Shown: one piece after another, positions 50 through 26,338 of the stretch
How positions within the stretch are numbered: the first letter of the stretch is position 1
How the letters are laid out: every line of letters begins with the position of its first letter
NCBI GenBank assembly: GCA_016207115.1
Contig: JACQQI010000007.1
Coordinates: 1 to 56,482, forward strand
Length of the DNA stretch: 56,482 nt
From: Candidatus Nealsonbacteria bacterium
Lineage (GTDB): Bacteria > Patescibacteriota > Minisyncoccia > Minisyncoccales > GWA2-46-15
Direction of reading: 5' to 3'
Position numbers and translations under genes: made by a program
The notes under the pieces: generated by a model
Told to the model about the DNA's origin: nothing
What the model saw: only the letters and a program-made list of their open reading frames with translations
Database searches by the model: none

Positions 50-3000
50 ATGTCTTTAATGGAGGTTCCGAAGAATTTATCCGTGAGGTCATTCTTAATG
101 GCAAATGGTAAGATAATAGCTTTGACGGTTACCTTGATAGTAACCGTTGGTTTTTTATCTGCCAACATCGGTCTGGGCGGAGTTTTGAATATTGATAATA
201 AGACGGTGGCCGGCTTTAAGTTTTTCTTAGGCACGTTGAAAACTTTTGCCAATGTGAGCATTACCGATGATCAGATCAGGAGTCTTTTTAACCTGACCGT
301 CGGCGGCGCGAGTACCGGCGCTGACATCAGTTACGGCCTTTTGGTTTTGAGCGCCATGAACGAATTCGATCTGATCGACATGGTTTCTTCCCAATCCTAT
401 AAGGAAAAAGCCCGGGATTATTTTGATTCGGTCGTTAATTCTCGATTGAATATAGTTGACCGGGGTGAGGACATTAGCTTTGATATGATTACGGTTTTTT
501 TCAAGCTTATTAGACAAGGCGGAGCCAGCGCCACGCCCATAACTAGTTTAAGCTTGAGTTCTTTTGCTATTACCGGCAAGACCATCGCTATTTTTAATAC
601 CCTTCATGTTTTAAGTCAGGAAAAGCTTTATGATGGAATTTGGCGCTACTTTGACTCAAGGAGAGGCGGCGAGAGCCATCAAGTTGCCTGGGAAGACGCC
701 AAGGCGGAAATGGGATGGGCAGCAAAACTTTCTCTCGTAGAAGGAAAAAGGTTTAGATCAGGGGCAGACAAGGATAATTATGATCAGCTTGCCCTTCGAT
801 TCGCTAGCCTTTGGGATGCTTGGGGGCAAAAGACTGATGCTTTTGGCGTCAAGCCGGAATTTAAAGAAAAGTTCGCCGGAGAAATTGGCTCGATTATTTC
901 CGCCGGACTCAATAACTCTCAATTTGCCCAACCCCAGCCGAAGCCTTTTCTCGATAAGGCGGCCGCCGAGCTCGCTCGAATCAAGAATTTATTGGCTAGT
1001 CTAATCGATCAGATCAATCTCAAAGCTGCCACCGGGGGACTGGTCGGATTATTGTCGTCGGAGGAAACCATTATTAACAATCCCTCGGCCGTGACGGCGG
1101 CGGTTGGCCTAGAACTGGACCAGACGGGAATCAATGATTTGAAGGAGCAGATTGATACATTGAGCCAGAAGGTGACAGAGGTCCTGCCATTGGCTTTGCC
1201 CGATTCGTCCCTTTCCAGCCTGGTCCAGGCGGCGGTCACTCGGCCCCTGCTCAGTCCCGTTCCTAGTCCAAAATCAACACTCAGCGCGTCTCCCAGCCCT
1301 TCGCCGAGCCCAAAGCCGAGCCCTTCACCCTCGCCTTCACCGGCGCGCTCGCCGTCTCCCTTGCCCAGTCCTCTGGTTAGTCCTTCGCCCAGTCCTTCGA
1401 GTCCGCTCAGGACTCCTAGCCCATCGGCTAGTCCATCGCCCAGTCCTTCACCGATTCCTAGTCCTTCGCCTCAGGCCGGCGGCGGCACGATTGATACTTT
1501 GCCGCCGACCGTTTCTGGTTTGCTCGTCCAGACTTCGTCTAATTTTGTCGTCATTTCCTGGCAGACCGACGAAGACTCAACCGCGCAGTTGGAATACGGC
1601 CCGACGACGAGTTACGGCAGCAGCCTTTCTGACAACGCCGCCTCTCAGAGGCACGTCTTTTACCTCGAGAACTTGAGCCTAAAGACGGCTTACTCTTTCC
1701 GCTACAAGAACCGCGACGCCAGGGGAAACGAGAGTTGGTCGGCCAGCCAGACTTTTCAGACCCAGCCCAAGGTTTTGATCAACGAGGTGCAAACCGGCCC
1801 CGACGAATTCGTCGAGCTCTATAACCCCAATTCAGAAGCGGTCAATCTCAGCGGTTTTTATCTCAACCATTACGCCGCTTCGTACAACTGGGGCGATCCG
1901 AGTAAAAGATGGTCTTTGCCGGCCGCCAGCCTGCCGAGCCACGGCTATTATCTGATCGGCGTTTACAACTTCCCTGACAGCGGCGGCAATCCCAGCGCCG
2001 ACACCCAGGCCCGAAACAACAACCCTTATACTTCGGGACAAATGAGTAATGACGGCGGCGGTCTGGCTCTTTTCGGCTTTGACGTCGCCACCTTGACTCA
2101 CGAGAGAGCGGAAAAGGCCAAGATCGATGCTTTTGGCTGGGGCAGCCCCTTGGTTAAAGAGGGAACCGCCTCGGCCGCCTTAACCAGCGGCCAAAGCCTG
2201 GAAAGAATTGGCAGCGGTACGGATACGGGTAATAATCTAAGCGATTTTCAGGTCAAAGCCCAGCCCAGCCCGACTAATTTTCTAGGCCAAACCAAAATCT
2301 ATCCTAGTCCGAGTCCTAGCCCATCACCCAGCCCCAGCCCCTCTCCTTCACCCAGTCCTTCGCCGTCGCCTACACCCTCTCCTAGCCCCAGTCCTTCGCC
2401 GTCACCGAGTCCCAGTCCGTCTCCTTCTCCTTCACCGTCTCCAACCCCCTCGCCGAGCCCCAGTCCTTCGCCGTCACCCAGCCCGAGTCCCTCGCCGAGC
2501 CCTAGTCCGACCCCGTCTCCTTCGCCCAGCCCTAGTCCATCACCCAGCCCGTCACCGTCACCGAGCCCTTCTCCTTCACCCTCACCCTCGCCTTCACCCA
2601 GCCCGTCACCGGGGGTCATTAGTGATACTTTCGAATCCTATGTGGATGGTTCACTTTTGGACGGTCAGGGTCAGTGGGTTTCATCTAACAGCTACAACGC
2701 TTCAGTTTCGATTGACTATGCTCACGGTGGTAGCACAAAATCGGCCAGGGTTTGCGGCAGTTGCGACGTGATTACTCACGATAGGCTTTGGGGTGATTTT
2801 ACAACTTCGACCGAGGGAAAGCTGGATTTTTGGGCTTATGTCAATCGACTGGATGCCAACGATAATCAGTCTTTCTATTTTAAAAAAGACGGGACGGGGG
2901 TTTTCGAAGTTTATCTTGCGACCGATGTCGACAATGCGCCACGGCTTTGCGCCGGCGGTAATTATTCCGGTTCCACCTGTCTGAGTTTTACGATAAACAC

Positions 3001-3187
3001 CTGGGCACATTTAGTAATTCAATGGAATGCTTCACAGTACAAATACAGCGTCGACGGAGGAACGACTTGGAGTAGTTGGCAAGATCCAGGAATCAATCCT
3101 CTGACCAATGGGGTCAATCAGCTTCGCGCCTACGGTAACGGCCAGTACCGGAAGATTTACTTTGATGATTTTGGCGCTGGGCCCTAG
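50..3187 (+). CDS. Secreted multidomain surface protein: TM/signal anchor, ~330-aa unknown domain, coiled coil, PS linker, FN3-like domain, lamin-tail domain (LTD), >100-residue (SP)n linker, C-terminal ConA/LamG-like jelly-roll
   Basis: ATG at 50 is preceded by GAGG. Hydrophobic '[17 protein letters not shown]'. '[34 protein letters not shown]' is FN3/PAP-N-like. '[31 protein letters not shown]' is an LTD signature. Beta-rich C-terminus '[20 protein letters not shown]'. Motifs recognised by eye. Confidence 0.8.
1253..1470 (+). repeat. Pro/Ser-rich low-complexity linker (coding)
   Basis: Translates to '[40 protein letters not shown]...[12 protein letters not shown]'. Boundaries approximate. 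Confidence 0.8.
2303..2611 (+). repeat. About 100 codons of near-perfect (Ser-Pro)n with periodic Thr-Pro punctuation (coding microsatellite-like tract)
   Basis: 6-nt period agYccN/tcNccN. 'TPSP' recurs about every 20-22 residues. Codons are varied (agc/agt/tcg/tca/tct). Confidence 0.9.
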
Positions 3188-3235
3188 GCTGTGCTTAATT
3201 TAGTTAAGCACGGAGCCAGCCTTGCGACTTTGTCA

Positions 3236-3258
3236 ACAGAGGAGACCCTCTGTTTTTT
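3236..3258 (+). terminator. Rho-independent terminator after the first surface-protein gene
   Basis: acagagg-agac-cctctgt followed by ttttt. An 8-bp hairpin gtgcttaa/ttaagcac lies at 3191-3211 just upstream. Confidence 0.7.
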
Positions 3259-3298: not shown

Positions 3299-3907
3299 AT
3301 GGAAAAACAAGAATTGGTCCAATTGACCAGCGATCTTTATCGCCTGACCCTGCTTTTCCCCAAGAAGGAGCCTTTGCGCTACAAAATGAGGGAGTTGGCC
3401 GATGACGTTCTGGCCGATATCTTAAAGCTCGGTTCCGGCCTTGGCCCTCAACCGGGTCTGAATTTAGACATCGTTCAGGACTTGGAAATTCTCTGCCACT
3501 TCTTTATCGTCGCCCGAGAGCAAAACTGGGTCAGTTTGTCTGATCTCTTGAACGTGAGCGAAAGGTATGCTACCCTGAAAGAAGAATTGAGCCGTTACCC
3601 TAGCGGTTCAGAAAGGGAAGATACCGCCGGCCAGGGGCCGGGAACAATGACGAACCAAACCGCCATTGATTTTAATGGTTCGCCCAAGAATATTCAGCGC
3701 CAAGACAGGATTCTGGAAATCCTAAAGGAAAAGGGCCGAGCCCAAGTTTGGGAATTTAAAAAGATATTTCCCGGAGTGAGCAAGAGAACTCTGCGCCGAG
3801 ATTTTGAGTACTTAGTCAGTCAGAATCTGGTTGAGAGGTTGGGAGAGAAGAATCAAACCTTCTACACCTCCAAAATACAGGTAGGACATGAGGTAGGTCA
3901 AAGTTAA
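3299..3907 (+). CDS. Transcriptional regulator, helical N-terminal domain plus C-terminal DeoR-type winged HTH
   Basis: 'RQDRILEILKEKGRAQVWEFKKIFPGVSKRTLRRDFEYLVSQNLVERLG' resembles HTH_DeoR. Confidence 0.6.
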   Translation: MEKQELVQLTSDLYRLTLLFPKKEPLRYKMRELADDVLADILKLGSGLGPQPGLNLDIVQDLEILCHFFIVAREQNWVSLSDLLNVSERYATLKEELSRYPSGSEREDTAGQGPGTMTNQTAIDFNGSPKNIQRQDRILEILKEKGRAQVWEFKKIFPGVSKRTLRRDFEYLVSQNLVERLGEKNQTFYTSKIQVGHEVGQS

Positions 3908-3981
3908 CCGCCTTAATGGGCAGCGTGTCCTATCTATTTGTTCCTATCCAAGCCTTAATTTGAAATCTGTCCTAACTATCA

Positions 3982-4485
3982 ATGGATCATCTCCAAAAGG
4001 AGTTCGGCAAACTTTATGATCAGCACATCGGTAAGATCTATCGGTTTGTTTTCCTCAGGGTGAATTCTACCGAGACGGCTCAAGACCTGACCTCAGAAAC
4101 CTTTGTGCGCGCCTGGGATAGATTTAAAGCCGGCGGTTCCGAACCAGGCGTTAAAAACTGGGCCGCCTTTCTTTATCAGATTGCCCGCAACCTGGTGACT
4201 GATTTCTATCGGGAAAAAGGCAAGATTCAGATCGTTTCCGCCAGCTATGTGGCCGATCCCAACCCGGCCCTGGATTTGGAGAATCAGGCATTTTTGAACT
4301 CAGACGTGGAACGAATAAAGGCAGCTCTATCTAAGCTGGGAGAAGAACACCAGGAAGTGATCATCTGGCGCTATTTGGACGGGCTCTCAAACAAGGAAAT
4401 TGCCGAGATCTTGGGTAAGCCCGAAGGCACGGTGCGGGTGATCGTTCATCGGGCTTTGGAAGCTCTGCGCAAAACTCTGGCCTAG
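3982..4485 (+). CDS. ECF-family RNA polymerase sigma factor (sigma-70 regions 2 and 4)
   Basis: Region 2 'IYRFVFLRVNSTETAQDLTSETFVRAW'. Region 4 'LSNKEIAEILGKPEGTVRVIVHRALEALRK'. Confidence 0.85.
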   Translation: MDHLQKEFGKLYDQHIGKIYRFVFLRVNSTETAQDLTSETFVRAWDRFKAGGSEPGVKNWAAFLYQIARNLVTDFYREKGKIQIVSASYVADPNPALDLENQAFLNSDVERIKAALSKLGEEHQEVIIWRYLDGLSNKEIAEILGKPEGTVRVIVHRALEALRKTLA

Positions 4486-4530: not shown

Positions 4531-5271
4531 ATGACCGAAAAAGACCTCATCAAGAAAATTAGCGCTCTTCAAGAGATTAAACCGGAAAAAGACTGGGTTG
4601 TTTTGACGAAGAGGCAGATTTTGAGAGATTGGCAGAAGCCCAGCTTGACCGAAGGCGTTTTAGAGGTTTTTCAAGTTTTGCCCGGGCTTTTCCGAGGATA
4701 CCGGCCAGCCTTAGCCACCCTGGCTTTTCTGGGTTTGATGGTTGGTTCTTTTGGATTTAGCCAGCTGGCCTTGCCCGGAGACTCCTTTTATCCGATCAAA
4801 AAGATGACGGAGAGGGTCGGTTATCTGTTGGTGGCCAAAGACCAGCAACCCCAAGCTTCTCTAGAGATGGCCAATAAGCGCCTGGATGAGCTGACGGCCA
4901 TTGCCCAGAACAACCAGGCCAGGAATTTGGCTCCGGCTATCAATGAGTTCAAGGCCAGCCTCGGCCAAGCCGTCAACACCCTGAAAGTGGTCAATGGCTC
5001 GCCGAAACTGACTCGGGAGATCGTCAAAGAAAGCGAGAAATTAATCGAGAATAAGAGCAAAATTGAAGCCCTGGGCGTGTCGGTTGACGAGGGCCAGGAA
5101 TTAAGCGCCGCTTTATCCCGGCTGGTGGAGAGAGAAATTAAGGATCTGGAGAGTCGGAGCTTGAACTCCGAGCAGCAAAAACTTTTGGAGCAGGCCAAAG
5201 AGAATTACCAAAAGGGCAATTTCAGCCAAGCCTTGGAAACCATCCTGTTATTGAGTTATCCACAGCCATAA
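4531..5271 (+). CDS. Anti-sigma-like single-pass membrane protein (DUF5667-type extracytoplasmic helical domain)
   Basis: Immediately follows the ECF sigma gene. TM segment 'ALATLAFLGLMVGSFGF' followed by 'LPGDSFYPIKKMTERV'. ATG at 4531 preferred over the TTG at 4513 used by the ORF track. Confidence 0.55.
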   Translation: MTEKDLIKKISALQEIKPEKDWVVLTKRQILRDWQKPSLTEGVLEVFQVLPGLFRGYRPALATLAFLGLMVGSFGFSQLALPGDSFYPIKKMTERVGYLLVAKDQQPQASLEMANKRLDELTAIAQNNQARNLAPAINEFKASLGQAVNTLKVVNGSPKLTREIVKESEKLIENKSKIEALGVSVDEGQELSAALSRLVEREIKDLESRSLNSEQQKLLEQAKENYQKGNFSQALETILLLSYPQP

Positions 5272-5284
5272 ATTAACACTTAAT

Positions 5285-5524
5285 ATGGAGAAACCGATTA
5301 CTAAAAAGTATTTGGACAATTCGCTGGATAAACTGGCCCGGATAGTTAAAAAAGGGTTCGATGGAGTAGATAAAGGGTTTGAGGGCAACAGAAAAGAACA
5401 CCAGCGCATTTTTGATCGCTTGGATAAGATTGACGCGAGGTTAAGCGGAATTGTCTATCGGCAAGAATTTGAAGAATTAAAAGCGAGGATGAAAACAATT
5501 GAGGAAGCCTTAGCCATAAGATGA
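5285..5524 (+). CDS. Small coiled-coil hypothetical protein
   Basis: 79-aa charged, heptad-like ORF with no recognisable family. Confidence 0.4.
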   Translation: MEKPITKKYLDNSLDKLARIVKKGFDGVDKGFEGNRKEHQRIFDRLDKIDARLSGIVYRQEFEELKARMKTIEEALAIR

Positions 5525-5682
5525 TCAACTCGTCTAAAGACGATTTCAATTTTAACATTTGAAGACTATTAAAAGCCTCGGTTTTTTGAGTGTGAAAAGA
5601 GATATCTCTACCCAAAAGACCAAGCCCCGGTCGGCAATAGTCAAAAAGACAAAATAAAAAGAATTAAAAAAGTAAACAACAA

Positions 5683-8600
5683 ATGAAAGATTTACAGAAA
5701 AAGATTCTAGCTCTGGTGACGATGGTGACTCTGGTAATGATGATGGCCCCTTCAGTCTCGGCCTTGACGGCCGATGAGCTGGCGGCTCAGATCGCGGCTT
5801 TACAGGCGCAATTGGCGGCTTTGAACAGCCAGTTGAACCAAACAACGCCGGCGGCCTCGGGCTCCTTTGACACCAACCTCTATTTCGGGTTGAAGAATGC
5901 CAAAGTGACGGCTTTGCAGGAGTTTCTCATCAGTAAGGGGCATTTGGCGGCTGGCTTGAACACCAGCTACTTTGGTTCTTTAACCAAGGCGGCGGTCATG
6001 GCTTACCAGACAGCCAAGGGCATTACCCCAGTGGCCGGTTACTTTGGTCCTTTGACCAGAGCCGCCGCCAATGCGGATAGTGGAGTTGTCACGCCCAGCC
6101 CTTCACCGGGCGCATCACCTAGTCCATCAACTGCACCATCAGCTGATGCAGTTAGTTTGGGTTCGGTTTCCGCGGCTTCAGCCGTGGCCAAGAACGCCCA
6201 GAACGTGACGTTCTTTAACCTCAACTTTGCCGCCGGATCAACCGCCTATACCGTCTCCAAGATCGTGGTTTCTCGGGGCGGGGTTTCCGCCGACGCGGAT
6301 ATTGCCGCCGTTAAACTTTATGACGGCATGACCCAAGTCGGTTCAAGCCAAGCTCTCAACACCACCACTCACAAAGCCACTTTCAGCATCAATTGGCAGG
6401 TTCCGGCCAACACCACCAAGGTTTTGACCGTAAAAGCCAACATTGCGCCCACAGGTACGTCCACGACCGGCAACAGCATTACTTTGGGAGTGGCGGCGGC
6501 CTCGGACATCACTTCGACGTCCGCGGGTTTAGCCGGTTCCTTCCCGATGGTGTCTAATGCCATGAACGTGTCCGGCACCGCAGTCGGCGTTCTTGATGTT
6601 GACGTCCAGACCGGTTTAGTTCCGGCTTCGACCATCCTTTCCGGAGCGGTCGAGCAGGAAATTGCCGCCTGGAAATTCGCCGCGAGTTCCGTTGAGGGAT
6701 TCAGCGTCAAATCAATCAAGGTCACGCACACCGGCTCGGCAACGAGAACCGATGTCAAGAACCTGAAATTGAAAGTCGTTGGCGCCCAAATCGGTTCAAC
6801 TGTGACGGAATTAGCTTCCGACAACACGGGTACTTTTGACCTCTCCGCTTCGCCCTTAGTGCTCAATGCCGGTCAATCGAAGTATGTTTATGCCTACGCC
6901 GATACGGCCGCCGGCATCAACACCTCGAGATCGGTCATCTTCGAGATCACTCAGGCGACGGACGTTGACGCCTATGGTTCCAATTCGGGCGGCGGTGTAA
7001 CCATTACCAAGGCCAGCGGCGGCTCGGGTACGGCTTTCACCAGCCAGACCGGCGCCACCATGACCATTGGTCAGGGAACGCTCGTGACCGCTCTGGATTC
7101 GGCACAAAATCCGGCCACACAGAGTTATGTCGTGGGAACGACCAACCGGTTAATGACCGCGTTGAAGTTCTCGACCGGCTCTCGCGAGGGCGCGAGATTG
7201 ACCGAATTAAAGTTAACCTTGGCCGGCACCAATGCCGCGGCCACCGACATCGCCAATATCACCCTTTGGGATGGAACAGCCCAGGTGGGCGGATCCGGTT
7301 CGGTCATCGGCTCAACCGTGACCTTTGGCACCAATACCATTGGTTGGGATTCCAGCGGTTTATTTGACATTGCCGCTTCTACCAACAAGACCATTTTGGT
7401 CAAAGCGGACATTCCCAATGGCGCCAACACGACTCACACCGTATCTTTGAGCGTGGGCAACGCGGCTCACGTCAAAGCCGATGGTTTAGCCTCGCAGTAC
7501 GATTTACCGGCAGCTTCGGTTACCGGAACCGCAACGGGCAATGCCCATACCATTGCCGCTTACGGAACTTTGGCGGTTTCTTTAGCCTCGACCACGCCTT
7601 CGGCTCAAACCTATGTTAAAGGCGCGACCGGCAAGGAATTCACCAAGATTAACTTTACGGCCGGCACCGGCGAAGACATTTTAGTTTCCGCCGTGACCAT
7701 CAAATCTTACGCCGCTACGGGCACGGGCACGGCCACGGCTTCGGGCGACGTGACGAACGTGAAGTTAATGAAGGCGGATGGCACCCAGTTCGGTTCCACC
7801 GTTTCTGCTCCCAGCACGACCGAGTCGTTCTCGGGCAGCTTGACCGTTACTTCTGGTAATACCGCCACCTTGACGGTCGTAGCGGATATTCCGACGACCA
7901 CAGCTTTGGGTTCAGCCGGCGTTCACTTTGACGTGTTAGCCTCAACTGTCGCCACCGACGTCACTTCGACCGGTGTCTATTCCACCGCCGACGTGACCGA
8001 AACGGGTGGGGCCACCGGCAATCTGATGGTTGTCGGCACGGGCAGTTTGACCGTTTCCGTGGCGAGCAGCCCGGCCGATCAGACGGCCATTCTCAACGCG
8101 AGCGGCGTGACTTACGCTGGCTTCGTTTTGACGGCCGGTTCGGCCGAGGATGTTCGCGTCAGCTCGATTAAGTTGACCAGAACTTCTTCTGGCACGGGAG
8201 CGGACGCGGATCTGTCCAACCTCGCTCTTTATAGCGATGCCGGCGCCAGATTGACCGCTTACAAGTCCTTAGCTACAGCCACCGTGACTTTCTCGGCCTC
8301 GGACTTCTTGAACTCCTTGGGCATCGACGTGACCAAGGGTCAACAGAAGCTCATTTACGCCAAGGCCGACGTGCCCTCAACCGCAACCAATAACGACAAG
8401 AGTTCTTTGGGCATTGATATCGCCGGCAGCGTCATCGTCACCGGATTGACTTCCAATACTAATCCGAACGCGACCCTGACGGCTGGTCCGGGCACTTCCA
8501 CCGGCGTCAACTGGAAAACGGGTACACCCGCGGCCACCGACCTCTACGAGGTCACCTTGTCTTCGGGCGGTTCTCTGACTTTGGCTCTTAATCCGGATAC

Positions 8601-9789: not shown

Positions 9790-9855
9790 TTCTCTAGTTT
9801 CTGGTATCTTCCGAGTTAGTTCTCAAATTTGTCATCCTTGTGGGACAAACCAATC

Positions 9856-9882
9856 GGCGCCCTTTGCGGGGCGCCTTTTGGT
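9856..9882 (+). terminator. Rho-independent terminator
   Basis: ggcgccc-tttgcg-gggcgcc followed by ttttggtt. Confidence 0.7.
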
Positions 9883-9901
9883 TATCCACAGCTTGACACC
9901 T

Positions 9902-9931
9902 TTGCATTGTTTTTTGTTTTGGTAGTATAAT
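9902..9931 (+). promoter_or_regulatory. Sigma-70-type promoter for the first fibre-like gene
   Basis: TTGCAT, 18 nt spacer, TATAAT. It would give a ~130-nt leader before the ATG at 10065. Confidence 0.5.
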
Positions 9932-10064
9932 GAAAACAGAATACAACAAAGGTCGAAGCCTGGGATTTCTTTAAATCTAGGCAAGTGCAAAAGTCGACAA
10001 CTCATTTTGTTTATTGGTGCACGATAAATAAAGTGAGTCATTATCTAAAAATCATTAACAAAAA

Positions 10065-13510: not shown

Positions 13511-13546
13511 ACTTGCTTTCCTTGTTCATCCTTGTGGGACAGCCAA

Positions 13547-13574: not shown

Positions 13575-13579
13575 ATATA

Positions 13580-13607: not shown

Positions 13608-13623
13608 TAGAAATAGGCATAAA

Positions 13624-13812: not shown

Positions 13813-14032
13813 AAACCGCCAGTTCCCGGTCATTGTCGAGAAAGACGAAGACGGTTTTTATGTTGTCGAATGCCCTTTGTTCAGCGGTTGTTTTACTCAA
13901 GGTAAAACCTTAGACGAAGCCCTCAAGAATATCAGAGAGGCTATAGAGCTTTGTCTGGAAGAAAAAGACAACCTGGAAATTTACCGAACCTATACTCCGA
14001 AGGAATTAAGTCTTCACACCATAACTCTTTAA
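13784..14032 (+). CDS. hicB: HicB-family antitoxin (no DNA-binding tail), copy 2
   Basis: 'FPVIVEKDEDGFYVVECPLFSGCFTQGKTLDEALKNIREAIELCLEE'. Overlaps copy 1 by 29 nt. Confidence 0.75.
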   Translation: MKRLSSAKIKNRQFPVIVEKDEDGFYVVECPLFSGCFTQGKTLDEALKNIREAIELCLEEKDNLEIYRTYTPKELSLHTITL

Positions 14033-14037
14033 TATTT

Positions 14038-14262
14038 GTGCCTAAATTACCCGTTATTACCGGAAGAAAAGCCATAGATATTTTTATAAAACTTGGCTAT
14101 CAGGTCGCCCGACAGCGGGGTAGCCATATCCGTTTGCTGCATTCTGACAAGAGGCCGCTGACAGTGCCGGATCACAAAGTTTTAGGTAAAGGACTTTTGA
14201 GGAAATTAATCAGAGAGGCTGAAATCCCGGTCGAAGAGTTCATAAGGCTTCTGAAGAAGTAA
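14038..14262 (+). CDS. hicA: HicA-family mRNA interferase toxin
   Basis: GTG start at 14038 gives '(M)PKLPVITGRKAIDIFIKLGYQVARQRGSHIRLLHSDKRPLTVPDH'. It lies 5 nt after the hicB stop. Confidence 0.8.
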   Translation: MPKLPVITGRKAIDIFIKLGYQVARQRGSHIRLLHSDKRPLTVPDHKVLGKGLLRKLIREAEIPVEEFIRLLKK

Positions 14263-14314: not shown

Positions 14315-14396
14315 TTCCACAAAGTCACGGTTGCCTTCAGAATAGATTAGAGAGATAATGATTTAACGAGCGCAAAAAAGCGTTAATTTTACAAAA

Positions 14397-16585: not shown

Positions 16586-16613
16586 TTGACCCGGTTTCTG
16601 GGCGGTTTAGAAT
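16586..16613 (+). promoter_or_regulatory. Putative sigma-70-type promoter for the giant gene
   Basis: TTGACC, 16 nt spacer, TAGAAT, starting 9 nt after the stop of the preceding gene. Confidence 0.45.
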
Positions 16614-19700: not shown

Positions 19701-22700
19701 CGGTGGACTCAACCGGCCCGACGGTCATGATGGCCAATGGCGACGATTACAAGCTGGCCATTACTTTCTCCGAACCAATGCAGGCCGCCAAAGCCACCGA
19801 TACCGTCAACTGGTCCGCCTCGGTTTTGAATCCGGGCAATTACGTTCTCTACAGCAATAGTTCGCCGCCGCCTTTTGTCGAGAATACTAATATGGCCAAG
19901 TACTTTGCCAACAACACTTTGGCCACGGCCACCGACACGGCCCACGGCGGACCACTGACCTTTAAGTACGACGCGGCCTACAACACGGTCATCATCGAAG
20001 GGCTTAAATTGCTCGATTCGTTACTGACGATAAAGGGCGGGTTTAATATCTGGGTCAAGAACGTCAAAGACATTTCCGGCAACGTCATCCAGGACACGAC
20101 CAAGCCGGCCAACGTCAATGATTTTGGCTTAAACACGGCCGGCGGTCCGGTCATGGATGCCAAATCAACTTTTGGCAATATCGGTCCCGGCGGCGGGGGG
20201 ATGTCGGGTCCGCCGCCAACCTCGGCTTTATCCGGCGGCGCCATGAACGTGACGGCTTTTGGCGGCAAAGACCCGGCCATGATGGGCTTTAAACCCGTCA
20301 ACGTCTTTCCTATGAACATGCTCGGCGGCCAGGAATCGATGTACATGATCGACCTGCCCTTGACTACGGCTATTCCGGCTTCGGGCCAGATCATTCTGAC
20401 TTTCCCGGTGGGTTTTGACGTGACCAACGCTGCCGACGGCGACCCCGGGCAAAAATGGGCTCACAAAGATATCAACGGGCCGGGTACGGGCACGGTGGTA
20501 CTCTCGGCGGTTTCGGCCAACGCCACGGCCCGAACCGTGACCATCACTCTGGGTAGCGTGGCGACTCAGGCCAACGATTTCCTGCACTTGGAAATTGACC
20601 GCATCAAAAACACGACCAAGTCTTCGGACGGAGACCTGGCCAGCGGCATCACCATGGGAGCGGGCTATCAGGTGGATATTTACACCAAGACGCCGAGCTC
20701 GGGCGGTTCCCGAACGCTGGAAACTTTGAAGTCCATGCCCTTCTTTATCAAGTCGGCGGGCGCCTCATCTCTGACCGGCAGCATTACCTTTAAAGACTCT
20801 GCCGGTGCCAACGCGGCCGTGACGTTGACCAATCTGCCGGTTTATCTGATGTCGCCGGCCACCGGCCCGCTGAAAACACTGGTCAGTTTTTCCAATTCGG
20901 CCACCGGAAATTATACCTTCTCCAATTTGCCCACCGGAACCTACATGCTGGGTTCAGAAACCATGCAGTCGGTTTCCGGGACGGATTATTACATCGATTT
21001 ACAGCCCATGCCCCAATCGATCAATGTGGCTTCGGGCAGCAATACCAAGAACTTGGTTTTCCAGGCGCAGTCGGCCGCTAACAAACCCAACCTGACCGTC
21101 TACGTCACCGGCACCTTTACCAATGAGAGCGTGGACATTTTTGCCGGCGGCCCGGGCAACTTCGCCGTTAAAACCATCGCCCTCAATGGAACCTTTACCA
21201 ACGCCTCGCCTTCAATCCAAACTCTTTACTTGCCTTCCACCGGTACTTGGATGGTCGGAATGGGCCCGGCCATGCCTAGGGGGCCGCAGCAATCCGGGCC
21301 TCCGCCCATGCCCAGTTGGATGCCCCCGCGGCCCGTTGAAGTTAACGTTTCGGGCACGGGGCCCGGCTGGACCTGGAAAGACCATGACGGCGCCGCCACT
21401 CTCGACACTTCCTCAACCGACGGCAAAATCACTCTCGGCGTGGCGACGGCCAATAAAACCATCAACGGCCACGTCTATAACCCAGCCGGAAGCACGGGCA
21501 TCCAGAATGCCGAAGTCTTTGCCTTTTCTCCCCTGGGCGGAATGGGATCTCACGCCCAATCGGGCGCCGATGGCTCTTTCACTCTGAAGGTAATGGACGG
21601 CAGTTATCAGGTCGGCGCTTTTGTTCCGGGCATGATGCCCTCCCAAGAAATTCCCGTGGAGGTGAAAACCGTCAGCTCGGTCACGACGATCTACGCCAAC
21701 GGCACGGCCACTACCGATCTCATCATCAAAATCCAGAATCCCGAATCGATGTACACGATTTCGGGCAAAGTGACCGACGGCACCAACGTCATCAAGGATG
21801 CTTCGGTCTATGCCCGCCGAACCGATGCGCCCGGCAACGTCGGCGGCAAAACCGATTCGATGGGTAAATACATTCTCTACGTTCAGGCCGGAACTTGGGC
21901 CGTCGGGGCTTTCCTGCCTCAGTACGGCAACTTAACCGAACAGAGCGTGATGATTAGTACGGCTTCCCAGGCCAACATTGATTTTGCTCCGGCCACGGGC
22001 ACGACCTTTAGGACCGTCAAAGACCGGGTCTATAAAGACGTGGACAGCAGCGGAACTTATACCGGTGGCGACACTCTCTTAGCCAATGTTCACGTGGACT
22101 TTGACCGGACGGGTTATCACAACGGTTCCCTGAGCGATCAGACCGGCCAATACACCATCCTCGTGCCCGACGGTACTTACACGGTGACGGCCTGGTCGCC
22201 CGACATCGGCAAGATTCCGCCGCAGACCGTCGTGGTTTCGGGCAACATCAATTTGACGGGCGAAGCGGATTTACCCGTCTCCGACACCCGGACCGTAACC
22301 GTCAACTTTATTGATTCTTTGGGAGCGCCGGTAACCTTGAGCGAAGTCTATGTCCAGATGGATAAACTCGGCGCCAAAGACGTCAGCAACGAAACGAGCC
22401 GAGAGAACGTTTCTTCGCTGACTCTGCCGGTTCCGGCCGGCACGGGCTACGAATACGCCCTGGAGCTGGCCATTCCCGGCGTAGCCGATCAAACTTTGAC
22501 CCTGGCTGGCGGCGGCAGCACGACGGTGACCGGTTCGGATGTCAACTCCGATAGCGCCATTGACATGTATAAGGTGGTGGTGGACGGTAACGAGACGATT
22601 AATGTCACCGTACCGACGCTTTACCAGGTTTCGGGCCAGGCTCTGGATAATTCCGGCAATCCCTTGACCGATACGGTCGTCAATATCAAAAAGGCCGGGT

Positions 22701-24484
22701 CGAACGACGTGGCCCTGGCGGTCAAAACTGATTCGTCGGGAAACTATTCGGTCAATCTGCCGGCTTCGGGAGCGGGCACGCCTTACCTTTTCCAGATCGA
22801 CAAGGGCGGCTACGTCGACACGGGCTTGTCCGTGGTCGTGGATGGCACGGAAACCCAGAATTTGGACGCCAACAAGGCCAGTTTGACAATTTCCGGCCAG
22901 ATAAAAGTCGGCTCCGCGGGCGTGGAGGGCGCTAAGGTTTTCGGCAAAGAGCTGGGCGGAGGATTCACTTCGACCGAGACCGATGCCCAGGGAAATTACA
23001 GCCTACCCGTGACCGCCGGCAACTGGAAAGTCTCGGCCGCTTCGGATGGCTATCAGGAAAAAGAGTATCAAAATGCTTCCAGCCAGGATATCGTCGTTTC
23101 GGTGACCGCGAGCGTACCCGGGATCGACGTGACCCTGGCGACCCAGAAAACCGGATTGGCCACGGTCAATAATTCTGATTTAAATCCTTCGGCCGGCGCC
23201 ACCTTCGAACATTCGTCGGCGGGACTGGAATTAATCGCGCCGCAGAATGCCATTGCTTCCTCTCAAGCAACCTATCAGATGGAGGATTATGAAGTTGCCA
23301 ACGTCACTTCTTCACCCACGGCTAAAACTATCGGCGGGGAAGCCGTCCAGCTCTCGGCCTATGAACCCTCCGGTTCTTCGATGGTGCCCAAGTCGAGCTT
23401 TTCTTCCGATGTGACCATCGAAAAGAAATACACCAAAGCGGAACTGGTCGCCGAGGGCATCGATACTTTTGCCGAAGCGGAAAACGTCACCATGTCGTAT
23501 TTTGACAACTCGGCTTCCAACTGGGAACCGGTCCTGACCAATATCACCTATTTGGACAGCGGCGACCAGCCGGTCATTCCGACCAACACTCTGGCCAATG
23601 TGGCGGCGGTGGTCTATGCCGGCGTCTCCGACCACCTGACCGTCTATTCGCCGACCAATCAGAATCCGGATGGTTTAGCTCCCTCGGCACCCACCAGCGC
23701 CAGCGGGACCGCCACTTCGGGCACGAATACAATTTCTTGGACGGCGCCGACAACCAATACCGACGCGAGCAGTCTGACCGACCTCTTGGGCTATGAAGTC
23801 TATCGTTCGACTGCGGCCTCGGGCACCTACGTTCAGATCAACGCGACGGACGTGACCTCAACGAGTTATGCCGACAACTCGGTCAGCTCGGGCACGACCT
23901 ACTACTACAAGGTAACGGCGGCCGACACCGGCGGCATTGAATCCAATCTGTCCACGGCTAGCTCGGGAGTCTTGGCCTACGTCGGTGGCGGGGGTGGCGG
24001 CGGCATTTCCTTCTGGCCGACTCCGTCCCCGAGCCCTTCACCGAGTCCGTCGCCTTCGCCCAGTCCCTCCGCCTCACCCAGTCCTTCGGCCAGTCCTTCT
24101 CCGACAACGCCCACGGGCTTAGTGTCGATTCCGACGCTTTCGGCCAATCCGACCCGGTCCGAGATTCAGGCCGCCATCACCGCCATCGTCCAGAACATCG
24201 CCTATTTGCAAGCCGAATTGACCAAACTCCGGGGTGGAGCCGGTTCGATCGCGGCTTTTGTCCAAGATCTTCATTACGGTCTGTTAGAAGATCCTCAGGT
24301 CAAAAAGCTGCAGGGACTTTTGGTCAGCCGGGGCTACCTGGGCACGGGTTTGGACACGGGAAATTACCTGTCCAAGACCGTTCAAGCCGTCAAAGCCTAT
24401 CAGCAAGCCAAAGGCATTACTCCGGTCAACGGCCGCTTTGGGCCCCAGACCCGGCAGGCCATGAACACGGACCTCGGCTTGTAG
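16748..24484 (+). CDS. Giant (2578 aa) S-layer/adhesin-like wall-anchored protein: signal peptide, LTD, Big_5/SbsA-like Ig domains, CarboxypepD_reg-like domains, FN3, PS linker, helix, C-terminal PG_binding_1
   Basis: 'VVISEVKLSGATETDEFIEIYNKTNSTVTISGWKV' (LTD). 'ISFSKDLDASTINSSNITL' (Big_5-like). 'VKGKVMSGASGIDNANVTLRGAG...FTFSNIPAGMFRLEANAPGY' (CarboxypepD_reg-like). 'LLGYEVYRSTAASGTYVQIN...YYYKVTAADTGG' (FN3). C-terminal 'LHYGLLEDPQVKKLQGLLVSRGYL...AVKAYQQAKGITPVNGRFGPQTRQA'. Poly-Gly hinges separate the modules. Confidence 0.85.
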   Translation: MSKQKGGRFFKRTVTVLTSLTTILWSVGLPVLPVALAATPHIMMVEYVNPTTLQVRFDQLMNESTIVTGSFTLTTGATGDNSSITSVTNATVDSKTVATVVASGAKISPGAGDFVKVASGAETNSPKNGTAEANADNGNIGIVAQPGQVVISEVKLSGATETDEFIEIYNKTNSTVTISGWKVTRLAQDGTPTDLVTFADPTTLAAGKFRLIAPTGTANVDNAYTPSGNGLDTNNTVILYRTAGPSFRSEDLVGCGTAVIKEGTAAVCPVANTSGERKASPTSTAVTLAAAGSEVAWGNSYDTNNNNFDFVGQSGAGVNPQSSASPAEVPGGGGGGYQNQPPNINHMPVGQVISGQDFMIMAQMADPETPAQGLTANLIYSTDGGTTWLTLVGQYMTQDFKFIIPSAATGSGTGVAFKYYLKATDADSNSRCMWNMGFGVCGTADATAKAGAWTVNSTSSAGMTNTVKGKVMSGASGIDNANVTLRGAGLNFNTTSATDGVAGTFTFSNIPAGMFRLEANAPGYSMGWIDGALSKLSGAAYGDNTINLTAGGGGGQGGDTTSPRVIWSAPMDGMNGAPTKINIPASGQFEAPIMIGFSKDMDATTITTDNIKIYPVTASGLGTALLGLSVAYQTQNSSVTLTDRGSRVIGSSDFGPDRKALVYSATPLTANSQYVIDLSASVKDAAGNVLQGNKSGGGHSISFTTSGDFSSFNTGQMTTGFNTFMTSGGGGGQFTPPYVTGSGPNNGAKNVPTNAKIVVNFSQPMDSTGINATSSTGTYVKLYDTNFNNTGSGQYVTVESIALDTTTKQMATLTVGGAGLAASHSNYAIRVLGGAKSATGVSMAMPDQANTVMYQADFSTGSTTDVGAPTVLGTTLQTYTAVTPCTGANVCVSGVPTNVGTMEISFSKDLDASTINSSNITLTNGTTSVSTTVSYDGLSRSLKIAPTTVLYTVTTYTLTVGTGVKAMNGTALAANYVVSFTTNSTVDSTGPTVMMANGDDYKLAITFSEPMQAAKATDTVNWSASVLNPGNYVLYSNSSPPPFVENTNMAKYFANNTLATATDTAHGGPLTFKYDAAYNTVIIEGLKLLDSLLTIKGGFNIWVKNVKDISGNVIQDTTKPANVNDFGLNTAGGPVMDAKSTFGNIGPGGGGMSGPPPTSALSGGAMNVTAFGGKDPAMMGFKPVNVFPMNMLGGQESMYMIDLPLTTAIPASGQIILTFPVGFDVTNAADGDPGQKWAHKDINGPGTGTVVLSAVSANATARTVTITLGSVATQANDFLHLEIDRIKNTTKSSDGDLASGITMGAGYQVDIYTKTPSSGGSRTLETLKSMPFFIKSAGASSLTGSITFKDSAGANAAVTLTNLPVYLMSPATGPLKTLVSFSNSATGNYTFSNLPTGTYMLGSETMQSVSGTDYYIDLQPMPQSINVASGSNTKNLVFQAQSAANKPNLTVYVTGTFTNESVDIFAGGPGNFAVKTIALNGTFTNASPSIQTLYLPSTGTWMVGMGPAMPRGPQQSGPPPMPSWMPPRPVEVNVSGTGPGWTWKDHDGAATLDTSSTDGKITLGVATANKTINGHVYNPAGSTGIQNAEVFAFSPLGGMGSHAQSGADGSFTLKVMDGSYQVGAFVPGMMPSQEIPVEVKTVSSVTTIYANGTATTDLIIKIQNPESMYTISGKVTDGTNVIKDASVYARRTDAPGNVGGKTDSMGKYILYVQAGTWAVGAFLPQYGNLTEQSVMISTASQANIDFAPATGTTFRTVKDRVYKDVDSSGTYTGGDTLLANVHVDFDRTGYHNGSLSDQTGQYTILVPDGTYTVTAWSPDIGKIPPQTVVVSGNINLTGEADLPVSDTRTVTVNFIDSLGAPVTLSEVYVQMDKLGAKDVSNETSRENVSSLTLPVPAGTGYEYALELAIPGVADQTLTLAGGGSTTVTGSDVNSDSAIDMYKVVVDGNETINVTVPTLYQVSGQALDNSGNPLTDTVVNIKKAGSNDVALAVKTDSSGNYSVNLPASGAGTPYLFQIDKGGYVDTGLSVVVDGTETQNLDANKASLTISGQIKVGSAGVEGAKVFGKELGGGFTSTETDAQGNYSLPVTAGNWKVSAASDGYQEKEYQNASSQDIVVSVTASVPGIDVTLATQKTGLATVNNSDLNPSAGATFEHSSAGLELIAPQNAIASSQATYQMEDYEVANVTSSPTAKTIGGEAVQLSAYEPSGSSMVPKSSFSSDVTIEKKYTKAELVAEGIDTFAEAENVTMSYFDNSASNWEPVLTNITYLDSGDQPVIPTNTLANVAAVVYAGVSDHLTVYSPTNQNPDGLAPSAPTSASGTATSGTNTISWTAPTTNTDASSLTDLLGYEVYRSTAASGTYVQINATDVTSTSYADNSVSSGTTYYYKVTAADTGGIESNLSTASSGVLAYVGGGGGGGISFWPTPSPSPSPSPSPSPSPSASPSPSASPSPTTPTGLVSIPTLSANPTRSEIQAAITAIVQNIAYLQAELTKLRGGAGSIAAFVQDLHYGLLEDPQVKKLQGLLVSRGYLGTGLDTGNYLSKTVQAVKAYQQAKGITPVNGRFGPQTRQAMNTDLGL
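24017..24106 (+). repeat. Pro/Ser-rich linker (coding)
   Basis: '[30 protein letters not shown]'. Confidence 0.85.
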
Positions 24485-24526
24485 ACAAAGCTTAGTTTTC
24501 TCACGGGCTCGAAAGCATTCAACGAA

Positions 24527-24555
24527 ACGCCTCGTTTTCGGGGCGTTTTCGTTTT
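24527..24555 (+). terminator. Rho-independent terminator after the giant gene
   Basis: acgcctcg-tttt-cggggcgt followed by tttcgtttt. Confidence 0.7.
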
Positions 24556-24571: not shown

Positions 24572-24628
24572 AAAATAGACTTCGTCGTTTGATTCTGATC
24601 AAAATAGACTTCGCCGCGGGAGTCTGAT
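24572..24628 (+). repeat. Tandem direct repeat (period 29 nt) in the promoter region of the protease gene
   Basis: aaaatagacttcgTCGTTTGATtctgat / aaaatagacttcgCCGCGGGAGtctgat. The 13-nt and 6-nt arms are identical and the 9-nt cores differ. Confidence 0.7.
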
Positions 24629-24655
24629 AGAATTAAATTGATATTCTTTTCCGCG

Positions 24656-26338
24656 ATGAAACGATTTTTTGTTTCAATTTTCTTCTTATCGATCACCTTA
24701 ATTCCTTCTTCGGCCGCGGCCTTTTCCATTGGCGACAGCCAGATCTTCAACGTGGAATCGACTTTCGACCTGACCCAGAGGGACCAATTGACCGCCAGCT
24801 TGAAAAAGACGACCAATCAAGCCTATTTCTATTTCGACAATGCTTGGTGGTCGCAGCTGAGAAGCGAGCAGCAGATTCAGGTGACCAACTCTTTGAATAA
24901 TCTGGGCGAGGAGTTCGACGGCAAGATCTATCCGGTTTTGACCCAGGCCTTCGGCGACGTCTGGAACCCGGGCATCGACAAGGACACGCGCATCACCATT
25001 CTCTTCCATCCGATGAAAGAAGCGTCGGGCGGCTATTTCAATTCGGCCGACGAATATACCAAGGCGCAGATCCCCAAGTCCAACGAGAGGGAAATGCTCT
25101 ACCTCAACGCCAACCAGGCCACCAGCCCTTTATTGAGAGCCTTTCTGGCACACGAGTTCCAGCACCTCATCAGTTTCAACCAGAAAGAGAGATTGAAGGG
25201 AGTGACCGAGGACGTCTGGCTCAACGAGGCCCGCTCCGAATACGCCGCGACTCTCCTGGGTTACGATTCGCCCTACGAGGGCTCGAACCTGGAGAGGCGG
25301 GTGAGGAATTTCCTCGATAAACCCTACGATTCTCTGACCGAGTGGAAAAACCAGTCGGCCGACTACGGCGTAACCAATCTTTTCATCCAGTACCTGGTTG
25401 ACCATTACGGCGTTGATGTTCTGAAAGAATCGATGTTCTCTTCGAAAACCGGCATCGACAGCCTCAACGAAGTCCTGAAAAAGCTCGGTTTTACCGAATC
25501 TTTTTCCGAGATTTTCACCAACTGGACCGTGGCCAGCTTCGTCAACGACTGCAATCTCGACGTCCGTTATTGTTATCTGAACGAAAGTCTGCGCAGCTTC
25601 CGCATCGTGCCCCAGGCCAACTTTCTGCCGCCGGTGACTCAGACGAGCCTGTCGGTGGTCAACACGACCAAAGAGTGGTCGGGCAACTGGTACAAGTTCT
25701 TCGGCGCCAAGGGGAACCTGACGCTGGAATTCAACGGCAACAGCGCGACCGCGTCTTTCAAAATACCCTATCTCTTGGAAGGCAAAGACGGCAAAACCAA
25801 CGTTGACTTCATGAGCCTCGACGGCCTTTCCCGCGGCCGCCTGACAGTCAAAGATTTCGATAAAAACTATTTTACCTTGATCATCATCCCTTCTCTGCGG
25901 GGGAAGAGCAGCAATTTTTCTTCGCTGGAGCCGACAGTTCAGTTTTCCTGGACGGCTTCGGCCGGTGAAAATGTCGGGACGCCCTCGGAGAACCCGGCCG
26001 AGATCGAGGCCCTCTTAAACAAGATCGCCGAGCTGAAGCAGGAAATCGCCCGACTGCAGCAATTGCTGTCGGGTCTAAAACCGACCCCTTCCTTTTCCTG
26101 CTCGTCGTTTCCTCTCAACCTTTATTACGGCCTGACCGGCTCTCCGGAAGTCCGCTGCCTGCAGGAATTCCTGAAATCCAGGGGCGAGGGGATTTATCCG
26201 GAGAAACTGGTCACCGGCAGCTATCTATCCCTGACGGTCCAGGCGGTCAAGCGCTATCAGGCCCAAAAAGGCATCGTTCCAACCGGCTATTTCGGCCCCA
26301 AGACGAGAGCCGCCGCCAACCTTGACATTTCCAAATAG
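24656..26338 (+). CDS. Secreted HExxH zinc metalloprotease with C-terminal helix plus PG_binding_1 anchor
   Basis: Signal 'FFVSIFFLSITLIPSSAAA'. 'LRAFLAHEFQHLISF' (HExxH; the HEFQH context recalls peptidase M30, unverified). C-terminal 'IEALLNKIAELKQEIARLQQLL' followed by 'LYYGLTGSPEVRCLQEFLKS...AVKRYQAQKGIVPTGYFGPKTRAA'. ATG at 24656 preferred to TTG at 24638. Confidence 0.75.
   Translation: MKRFFVSIFFLSITLIPSSAAAFSIGDSQIFNVESTFDLTQRDQLTASLKKTTNQAYFYFDNAWWSQLRSEQQIQVTNSLNNLGEEFDGKIYPVLTQAFGDVWNPGIDKDTRITILFHPMKEASGGYFNSADEYTKAQIPKSNEREMLYLNANQATSPLLRAFLAHEFQHLISFNQKERLKGVTEDVWLNEARSEYAATLLGYDSPYEGSNLERRVRNFLDKPYDSLTEWKNQSADYGVTNLFIQYLVDHYGVDVLKESMFSSKTGIDSLNEVLKKLGFTESFSEIFTNWTVASFVNDCNLDVRYCYLNESLRSFRIVPQANFLPPVTQTSLSVVNTTKEWSGNWYKFFGAKGNLTLEFNGNSATASFKIPYLLEGKDGKTNVDFMSLDGLSRGRLTVKDFDKNYFTLIIIPSLRGKSSNFSSLEPTVQFSWTASAGENVGTPSENPAEIEALLNKIAELKQEIARLQQLLSGLKPTPSFSCSSFPLNLYYGLTGSPEVRCLQEFLKSRGEGIYPEKLVTGSYLSLTVQAVKRYQAQKGIVPTGYFGPKTRAAANLDISK

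Follow-up and report, generated by a model that had tools for sequence, protein, structure and literature searches.

The closest described relatives of the locus reported here are secreted peptidoglycan (PG)-binding proteins of Parcubacteria (Paceibacteria). In cultured Ca. Yanofskyibacterium, four consecutive genes of PMX_810_sub encode a DeoR-type helix-turn-helix (HTH) protein (00353), an extracytoplasmic function (ECF) sigma factor (00352), a DUF5667 protein (00351), and a 692-aa signal-peptide protein with a PG-binding domain (00350) (PMC10936435). Their metatranscriptomic expression values at the first time point were 10.4, 7.6, 12.5, and 16.7, respectively, and that of the sigma gene was 0 at the second (PMC10936435). 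Gene 00350 and its counterparts in two other Paceibacteria, all encoding PG-binding-domain proteins, are among the five most highly expressed secreted genes, and Kuroda et al. 2024 suggested a role in host attachment for such proteins (PMC10936435). A survey of surface-layer (S-layer) proteins predicted a 692-aa Yanofskybacteria protein and other Patescibacteria proteins of 640-1270 aa to be lattice-forming (bioRxiv 10.1101/2024.05.28.596244). Here we analyze a related locus in a 56-kb stretch of DNA from a Candidatus Nealsonbacteria bacterium (the window), a chromosome segment of Patescibacteria (Parcubacteria/Paceibacteria-like). An earlier reading of positions 50-26338 (the original prediction) described a single 26-kb island of co-directional surface genes and suggested control by an adjacent sigma factor. 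We find that the locus is a conserved cassette of many ultra-small Parcubacteria, enlarged here by extra surface proteins. With moderate confidence, we interpret it as the locus that encodes the main wall-anchored (S-layer-like) protein on the surface of a Parcubacteria (Paceibacteria) bacterium, accompanied by a sigma module dedicated to envelope sensing.

As predicted from sequence, the conserved core comprises a DeoR-type HTH protein, an ECF sigma factor, a DUF5667 protein, sometimes a small coiled-coil open reading frame (ORF), a giant PG-anchored protein of tandem immunoglobulin (Ig)-like domains, and a PG-anchored M30-type protease. In the window, the core and its associated elements are as follows.

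3299-3907, plus strand: 202-aa regulator with a C-terminal DeoR-type winged HTH (HTH_DeoR PF08220, E 1.8e-7)
3882-3888 (minus strand), 3926-3932 and 3968-3974 (plus strand): TAGGACA/TGTCCTA operator-like repeats of the spacer from the HTH stop to the sigma start
3982-4485, plus strand: ECF (group 4) sigma factor, 167 aa, Sigma70_r2 and r4/r4_2 only
4531-5271, plus strand: DUF5667 single-pass membrane protein (PF18915, E 1.1e-9), candidate anti-sigma factor
5285-5524, plus strand: coiled-coil ORF, 79 aa, facultative member
5556-5653, plus strand: structured 5' leader RNA of the giant gene, between the DUF5667 and giant genes
5683-9789, plus strand: giant surface protein, 1368 aa, candidate major wall-anchored or S-layer protein
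9828-9849, plus strand: hairpin in the 3' untranslated region (UTR) whose loop UCCUUGUG is conserved; a terminator lies next, at 9856-9875
24656-26338, plus strand: secreted M30-like zinc metalloprotease, 560 aa, with C-terminal PG_binding_1, conserved cassette member, likely start ATG 24656

We collected DUF5667 homologues in 107 clusters and retrieved their loci from assemblies, GTDB genomes (37 loci, by a search built on a 13-sequence alignment), and JGI metagenomes (40 loci). All window proteins were compared with all locus ORFs, and the counts below refer to 80 non-redundant Patescibacteria loci, with loci that have enough sequence as denominators. In the synteny search that had been proposed as a check, the regulatory trio was physically linked to a giant protein with PG_binding_1 in virtually all relatives covered. 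The ECF sigma gene lies at most 1.3 kb upstream of DUF5667 in 61/61 loci, and all 52 of 52 have the HTH gene ahead of sigma. In 41 of 52, the gene for a 1368-aa-protein homologue begins at most 0.8 kb downstream of DUF5667; where none was detected by sequence, the gene at that place encodes a 620-690-aa protein with PG_binding_1 at about residues 73-122 and has the same leader and 3' hairpin. The HExxH protease is found within 10 kb downstream in 18/29 loci (E 1e-134 to 1e-183), often straight after the giant gene. A lamin-tail domain (LTD) protein precedes the trio in 15 of the 28 loci with enough upstream sequence. The small coiled-coil ORF, which had been pointed out in the window, is a real ORF with homologues in a minority of related loci (5/52; homologues at the matching position in L010, L015, L021, L047, L049, L063, L081, and L083).

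Further upstream, a cluster of HtrA (Trypsin-PDZ), ClpB, and Trypsin_2 genes occurs in 15/25 loci with enough sequence; the window begins too late to show it. This cluster was noted in L002-L006, L008, L010, L018, L019, L024, L030, L039, L042, L060, L066, L079, and L082. Several loci have a gene inserted between sigma and DUF5667: YkuD, a membrane-anchored L,D-transpeptidase, in L012, L028, L035, L036, and L059; 23S_rRNA_IVP/bAvd, four-helix-bundle IVP proteins, in L004, L010, and L049; and an HNH-like ORF of about 280 aa, which resembles a homing endonuclease and has no Pfam match, in L013, L042, L052, and L070. The upstream HtrA-ClpB-Trypsin_2 genes and the YkuD insertions in five loci fit an envelope theme. 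Three metagenome-assembled genomes (MAGs) apparently hold two sigma/DUF5667/giant cassettes: Woykebacteria RBG_13_40_15 (L014 and L041), KR13_S3.mb.134 (L028 and L035), and MFD04408.bin.1.52 (L024 and L038). These could be true paralogues or binning/strain artefacts.

The 1368-aa protein consists of a signal peptide, a short coiled coil, PG_binding_1 (residues 73-128), a Pro/Ser linker, repeats, and a C-terminal part. Where about seven tandem beta repeats of ~120 aa had been predicted, we find six clear repeats of ~115 aa, the remainder being the divergent C-terminal part. AlphaFold predicts beta-sandwich folds throughout residues 170-1368 (pLDDT 87.5), and the only Foldseek matches were tandem arrays of Ig-like folds of a generic kind, such as mastigoneme, PrgB, alpha-2-macroglobulin, integrin legs, and pilins. 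The family has about 500 members over Parcubacteria lineages, mostly of 1350-1500 aa. Of the properties expected of an S-layer protein, a signal peptide and a PG_binding_1 anchor are predicted in the window protein itself, and high expression is known only from the positional orthologue in Yanofskyibacterium. PG_binding_1 occurs in four window proteins by hidden Markov model (HMM) search.

One of these is the protease, and the earlier call of an HExxH enzyme is borne out: over residues 46-299 (~250 residues) it is homologous to the solved M30 protease lugdulysin (7bb8, E 6.5e-9). Identity between its homologues and the window protease is 44-51%, and 74 residues, those of HExxH and WLNE among them, do not vary; HEFQH and WLNEA are invariant in 21 homologues (H172, E173, H176, and W194-E197 in the window). 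The features that define M30, an HExxH with a downstream Glu and homology to a characterised member, are thus both present. No Pfam Peptidase_M30 match was obtained at E<0.01; Peptidase_M78 matched at E 0.0016 and MXAN_6640_HExxH scored 25.8 against 140 bits. Lugdulysin and hyicolysin (MEROPS M30) are likewise secreted and align over ~250 residues with the HExxH and the downstream Glu-containing motif; unlike them, the window protease has an extra middle region of ~200 residues and a C-terminal PG_binding_1 anchor.

All three members of the regulatory trio in the original prediction, HTH, ECF sigma, and DUF5667, were confirmed by HMMs. The sigma factor passes the ECF superfamily model TIGR02937 (103.1 bits, cutoff 42.9). 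Its best named NCBIfam model is the BldN family (TIGR02952), and membership in that family was rejected on a score far under the equivalog cutoff (111.6 bits, cutoff 206.45). The DUF5667 ORF opens with TTG at 4513, and ATG 4531 is the likelier start; the database form has 246 aa (P0001). Its AlphaFold2 model has two short N-terminal helices, a transmembrane helix at 65-83, and an external helical bundle of ~150 residues at 93-247. Class I anti-sigma factors have an N-terminal four-helix domain of ~80 aa, often with HxxxCxxC. We rejected DUF5667 as a class I or zinc-binding anti-sigma, since its cytoplasmic part has only ~60 residues in two short helices and the alignment shows no Cys/His motif. 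Our literature search found no mention of DUF5667, and nothing relevant on ECF sigma factors with Patescibacteria or on Parcubacteria S-layer metaproteomics.

Nearly all related loci carry the TGTCCTA motif in the spacer between the HTH and sigma genes, often as a perfect GGTAGGACA-N3-5-TGTCCTACC palindrome with one to three direct copies, and lineage-specific variants of the repeat (TGTGACA, ATGCGACA) exist. Within the window the motif clusters at this spacer only. The array resembles a set of operators recognised by a DNA-binding protein that co-evolves with them, for which the HTH protein would be the obvious candidate. We considered TGTCCTA as an ECF promoter and rejected it: both orientations occur at spacings of 11-43 nt, which resembles an operator array. 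Autoregulated ECF promoters have a -35 element with AAC and a -10 element with CGT. In the spacer before sigma we found variably spaced TGTCCTA/TAGGACA arrays, no fixed -35/-10 pair, and no other autoregulatory candidate.

The giant gene is preceded by a structured leader. Its helix P1 pairs 5564-5570 with 5636-5642 and encloses a long inner helix (~5577-5592 with 5609-5624). P1 begins right after a conserved UUGARA, and its 3' strand directly follows an invariant GGUCGR, which lies at 5629-5634, 57 nt upstream of the ATG (53-60 nt across loci). Two classes of leader, noted in this spacer in loci from L002 to L082 as well as in the window, share P1, GGUCGR, and AAAUAAAU. In class B, to which the window belongs, P1 encloses the long helix with conserved UUUUUGR/CCAAAAG; in class A, a CGUGAC-UAAUACGUAAG-GUCGCG hairpin takes the place of the inner helix. 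RNAalifold recovers P1 and the inner helix of class B. Among 12 sequences, 90.8% of cells are paired, against 42-50% with partner columns slid, and 10/20 pairs show compensatory change; among 31 model matches, the values are 91.8% and 17/20. In class A, RNAalifold favours the local hairpin over P1. There P1 can still form (91% paired) but hardly varies, and for this reason the evidence for it stems mostly from class B. Our covariance model (R1) matched 22 loci at E<1e-3, all on the plus strand in the DUF5667-giant spacer, and nothing elsewhere in 790 kb. Neither the leader nor the 3' hairpin corresponds to an Rfam 15 family: searches of the window and of eight loci at gathering score gave no match for them, and 5272-10066 gave none at E<=1. 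We also considered GGTCGA and TGAAAG...CGTAA as ECF -35 and -10 elements. Their spacing varies, with inserts of 0-100 nt between them, and the promoter reading was dropped because the covariation of P1 makes sense only if both strands of the helix are transcribed. The loop and junction sequences (GGUCGR, UUUUUGR/CCAAAAG, AAAUAAAU) are kept across deep lineages, which suggests a specific ligand or protein partner and not a generic stabiliser.

At the other end of the giant gene, the UCCUUGUG hairpin lies ~30 nt (7-88) past the stop codon, with a terminator next, in 18 of the 21 aligned sequences; the other three copies in this alignment are W_13529 and L002b, which follow homologues of a 310-aa PG-binding protein (PG310), and W_9835, that of the window giant gene. 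The mean stem length is 5.8 bp (3.5±0.3 in shuffles); the 21 copies have 20 distinct stem sequences, and the stems covary. Transcription signals elsewhere in the region are the following.

3235-3254, plus strand: terminator-like hairpin after the LTD gene
3235 (the hairpin above), 5530, 9856, 24524 (24524-24549, 2578-aa gene), and 26387 (26387-26410, protease gene): terminators
13522-13542: second copy of the 3' hairpin, 3' of the 310-aa PG-binding gene
14331-14359: sigma-70-like promoter for the 726-aa gene
16586-16613: sigma-70-like promoter for the 2578-aa gene
24605-24633: sigma-70-like promoter for the protease gene

Every surface gene comes with a sigma-70-like promoter, a terminator, or both, and by these predicted signals the surface genes are separate transcription units. 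For the giant gene, the best-supported arrangement is a separate unit, bracketed by the predicted 5' leader and the 3' hairpin with its terminator. Such bracketing is in keeping with an mRNA of very high abundance, stabilised or controlled in translation, a situation known from S-layer genes. The upstream regions of six genes (5683 and five others) had been proposed for a search for a shared ECF-type -35/-10; our motif search found no such pair and no other common motif. The one conserved element 5' of 5683 is the leader RNA structure, which occurs nowhere else in the window. Copies of AAGGTCGA / AAAGTCGA, which resemble the GGUCGR core, lie at 9949-9956 and 9990-9997, in the 5' region of the 827-aa gene past a sigma-70-like promoter. 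As a motif common to the island genes AAGGTCGA was rejected, as it is overall no more frequent than chance predicts (46 observed, 55 expected) and the leader model has no match there.

We propose that the elements of the cassette would act together as follows. The HTH protein may set sigma expression through the TGTCCTA/TAGGACA operators, and the short N-terminal helices of DUF5667 may hold the ECF sigma at the membrane while its external helical bundle reports the state of the wall or surface layer. The leader and the 3' hairpin would stabilise or regulate the giant-gene mRNA, and the protease would mature the surface protein or other proteins bound to the wall, or turn them over. Between the giant gene and the protease, this genome would have gained 14.8 kb of lineage-specific surface genes and a hicBBA cassette. 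A bolder proposal, on balance unlikely, is that the leader and the UCCUUGUG hairpin are new regulatory RNAs specific to the candidate phyla radiation (CPR), bound by a protein or ligand and tuning the main surface protein, and that DUF5667 is a new anti-sigma class that monitors layer assembly, together forming a surface-layer homeostasis circuit without a described counterpart.

Several observations weigh against our interpretation of an S-layer-like protein with a dedicated sigma module. The giant protein has no sequence or structural match to any solved S-layer protein (PDB search, Foldseek), and its anchor is PG_binding_1, not a classical S-layer anchor, with SLH and CWB2 absent in the Pfam search. 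Its proposed equivalence to the 692-aa protein of the literature is argued from gene position, an N-terminal PG_binding_1 in both, and weak similarity of sequence. No anti-sigma domain is recognisable in DUF5667 (no zf-HC2 or RskA match in the Pfam search), and Foldseek gave no significant PDB match to its fold (best E 0.28). No ECF-type promoter from which a sigma regulon could be read was identified anywhere. For the leader, no clear sigma-70 promoter was found either (best match 7.67; shuffles 7.16±0.27). Its start lies directly behind the DUF5667 stop codon in several loci, so co-transcription and processing are possible.

The surface genes and the hicBBA cassette outside the core, most of them between the giant gene and the protease, are listed below.

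50-3187, plus strand: LTD protein, 1045 aa, membrane-anchored or secreted, accessory member (LTD E 2.7e-10)
10065-12548, plus strand: fibre-like secreted protein, 827 aa, lineage-specific
12578-13510, plus strand: PG310, 310-aa secreted protein with C-terminal PG_binding_1
13513-14262, plus strand: hicB-hicB-hicA toxin-antitoxin cassette of adjacent genes
14397-16577, plus strand: fibre-like paralogue, 726 aa, 51% identical over 146 aa to the 827-aa protein
16748-24484, plus strand: adhesin-like protein, 2578 aa, with LTD, Big_5 x3, CarboxypepD_reg x6-7, and C-terminal PG_binding_1

The gap of 14.8 kb between giant gene and protease is lineage-specific (two fibre-like paralogues, PG310, hicBBA, and the 2578-aa protein), and none of these genes, those for the 827-aa, 310-aa, 726-aa, and 2578-aa proteins and hicBBA, is regularly present in related loci. 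The domain claims made for the region fared unevenly. Both lamin-tail domains (50-3187 and 16748-24484) stand, and HMMs returned the Big_5 (x3) and CarboxypepD_reg (x6-7) modules of the 2578-aa protein as well as hicBBA (HicA 55.7 bits, HicB 43.9 and 27.5 bits; cutoff 27). Two FN3 domains were reduced to a single sub-threshold FN3-like match (Pur_ac_phosph_N, E 0.001), and the ConA/LamG-like fold was also sub-threshold (E 0.003). The tail-fibre-like repeats correspond to the two paralogues, which have no Pfam or PHROG match of their own apart from one marginal virion-protein match (E 5.5e-4). A PHROG search of the fibre-like, LTD, and small proteins gave nothing useful. The 827-aa protein and its paralogue belong to a modular family of about 2000 proteins, some of which carry Peptidase_S74, Mtd_N, or T4_gp9_10. 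Variable fibre-like and adhesin-like genes with a toxin-antitoxin cassette inside a conserved cassette are best seen as strain-level surface diversification.

That the seven large products are envelope or surface proteins is supported: all have a charged n-region, a hydrophobic stretch, and an AxA-like site, in line with the signal peptides or anchors first described, and the seven ORFs sum to 7,420 codons (~7,400 had been estimated). The long ORFs of 50-26338 are indeed all on the plus strand. As an island boundary, co-directionality fails, because the called protein-coding genes of 50-56367 are all on the plus strand; strand therefore sets no island limits. Nor do the 26 kb form one unit, as joint conservation is limited to the regulatory trio, the first giant protein, and the protease with HExxH, to which the upstream LTD protein is added in about half of loci. 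G+C is 0.53-0.58 across 6-26 kb and ~0.45-0.54 in the rest of the window. A Shine-Dalgarno-like sequence is absent from the 21 nt before the start codon of most window genes; the A-richest initiation regions by this measure are those of the giant gene (71% A) and the 827-aa gene (62% A).

Past 26.4 kb the window holds housekeeping genes: murB, speD, an intein-containing deoxyhypusine synthase gene, secA, secDF (secA and secDF at 33.9-39.3 kb), pgk, murJ, and lepA. The deoxyhypusine synthase gene (28342-30561) is split by an intein with Hint / Intein_splicing and HNH endonuclease domains. Immediately 3' of secF lies a gene for a 351-aa protein with Sigma70_r4 and HARE-HTH (39344-40399); Yanofskyibacterium has the matching adjacency, 00278 (annotated 'RpoS') beside SecF 00279. 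A TrwB/VirD4-like coupling-protein ATPase with a treble-clef zinc finger (41793-43427) sits amid the housekeeping genes. The only tRNA is at 51051, and a bacterial class A RNase P RNA at 46076-46462 (115.7 bits) is the sole minus-strand feature seen in the 56-kb window.

We weighed three other explanations for the locus. The original prediction took all seven secreted proteins as one host-attachment apparatus, the regulon of the adjacent ECF sigma, with the signal passing through DUF5667. The strict linkage of the sigma/DUF5667 pair to the giant gene would fit this, as would the three MAGs with apparently two cassettes, each having its own sigma; fibre-like and adhesin-like modules are present, and a host-attachment role was proposed for PG-binding proteins by Kuroda et al. 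(PMC10936435). We nevertheless consider it improbable, because the trio is regularly accompanied by the giant protein and the protease alone (and by the LTD protein in about half of loci), the rest not being conserved, and because each gene has its own sigma-70-like promoter and/or terminator. Moreover, no upstream motif is shared, and the leader model, GGTCGR, and TGTCCTA are restricted to a single spacer each. The surface gene of Yanofskyibacterium stands at 16.7 and its sigma gene at 7.6, or at 0 later; a very highly expressed surface gene beside a barely expressed sigma argues against strict sigma dependence. A single sigma-controlled apparatus of seven proteins has no support from promoter or conservation evidence; a narrower version, in which sigma controls just the giant protein and the protease, is conceivable. 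An island of mobile or prophage origin could explain the raised G+C (0.53-0.58 in 6-26 kb), hicBBA, and the fibre-like homologues that sometimes carry the phage modules Peptidase_S74, Mtd_N, and T4_gp9_10. This origin is very improbable: there are no phage structural, integrase, or replication genes, PHROG matches are absent or marginal, no tRNA (only that at 51051) or repeat forms a boundary, the core is chromosomal and conserved in many genomes, and higher G+C is expected from Ala/Gly/Thr-rich repeat proteins.

It is also conceivable, though on balance unlikely, that sigma/DUF5667 is a general envelope-stress or general alternative sigma module whose adjacency to the giant gene is inherited gene order, without direct coupling. 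Gene order is conserved over long stretches in streamlined one-strand genomes, as the HtrA-ClpB-Trypsin_2 genes upstream in 15/25 loci illustrate; the interval from sigma to DUF5667 tolerates the insertion of genes that are selfish or unrelated (HNH-like, 23S_rRNA_IVP, YkuD); and expression of the giant gene appears independent and constitutive. However, the linkage holds down to 26-30% DUF5667 identity and where flanking genes differ, and the possible duplicated cassettes retain the pairing. An S-layer-like protein with a dedicated sigma module remains the reading we prefer. The locus matters because Parcubacteria are an abundant group with almost no cultured members, and very little is understood of how their envelope is built and regulated or how they contact hosts. 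The cassette joins what is probably their most abundant secreted protein with a conserved protease and one of the rare alternative sigma factors that they encode. For DUF5667 it offers a concrete hypothesis of function, and the leader is a well-supported candidate for the short list of CPR-specific structured RNAs. Both conserved RNA elements and the operator motif are testable in existing cultures (Yanofskyibacterium, Minisyncoccus). The picture of a 26-kb island is corrected, strain-specific surface diversity residing in the variable part inside the cassette.

How does the cassette compare with known systems? The PG-binding proteins of Yanofskyibacterium, Microsyncoccus, and Minisyncoccus and the predicted S-layer proteins of Patescibacteria resemble the giant protein in signal peptide, PG-binding domain with Ig-like folds, and Parcubacteria lineage, and PMX_810_sub_00350-00353 has the same gene position beside DUF5667, ECF sigma, and DeoR-HTH. 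The window protein is twice as long (1368 aa against the published 692 aa), and the two papers treat the protein alone; the trio, the M30 partner, the leader RNA, and the 3' hairpin are not described there. The claim that no described system has this composition therefore holds in part: a PG-binding protein of this kind had already been reported as top-expressed and predicted to form an S-layer, and its regulatory neighbours and RNA elements are undescribed.

Among regulatory modules, sigmaE-RseA, sigmaW-RsiW, and sigmaV-RsiV share with the locus an ECF sigma gene followed by that of a single-pass membrane protein with an extracytoplasmic domain, and an envelope gene context, with HtrA-type proteases nearby in relatives of the window. 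They differ in that DUF5667 lacks a recognisable class I anti-sigma domain or zinc motif, that no autoregulatory ECF promoter is seen here, and that an extra HTH regulator with its own putative operator array precedes the sigma gene. In Streptomyces, sigma-BldN/RsbN controls the chaplin and rodlin surface-layer proteins, and its membrane anti-sigma has an atypical short sigma-binding region. This pair too combines an ECF sigma and a membrane partner with linkage to secreted cell-coating proteins, but the window surface proteins are unrelated to them and its sigma scores far under the BldN cutoff (206).

Surface-layer loci offer a second comparison. In Clostridioides difficile slpA/cwp, the S-layer gene is clustered with CWB2-anchored wall proteins, the cysteine protease Cwp84 matures the precursor, and Sec genes lie nearby. 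The window likewise has a surface-protein gene, wall proteins sharing one anchor domain, a wall-anchored protease, and sec genes; its anchor is PG_binding_1 and not CWB2, its protease is an M30-like metalloprotease and not a cysteine protease, and, unlike the window, the C. difficile locus has no sigma/anti-sigma pair. Lactobacillus slpA, Thermus slpA, and E. coli ompA have long structured 5' UTRs on very abundant structural-protein mRNAs. These resemble the leader in having a stem that closes near the probable 5' end and in unusual length, whereas the loops and junctions of the window leader are sequence-conserved across deep lineages and belong to no Rfam family. ECF sigma/anti-sigma pairs beside envelope genes, and S-layer genes with long leaders, are already known kinds; what had not been described is the cassette itself, with its DUF5667 partner, its operator array, and its two RNA elements.

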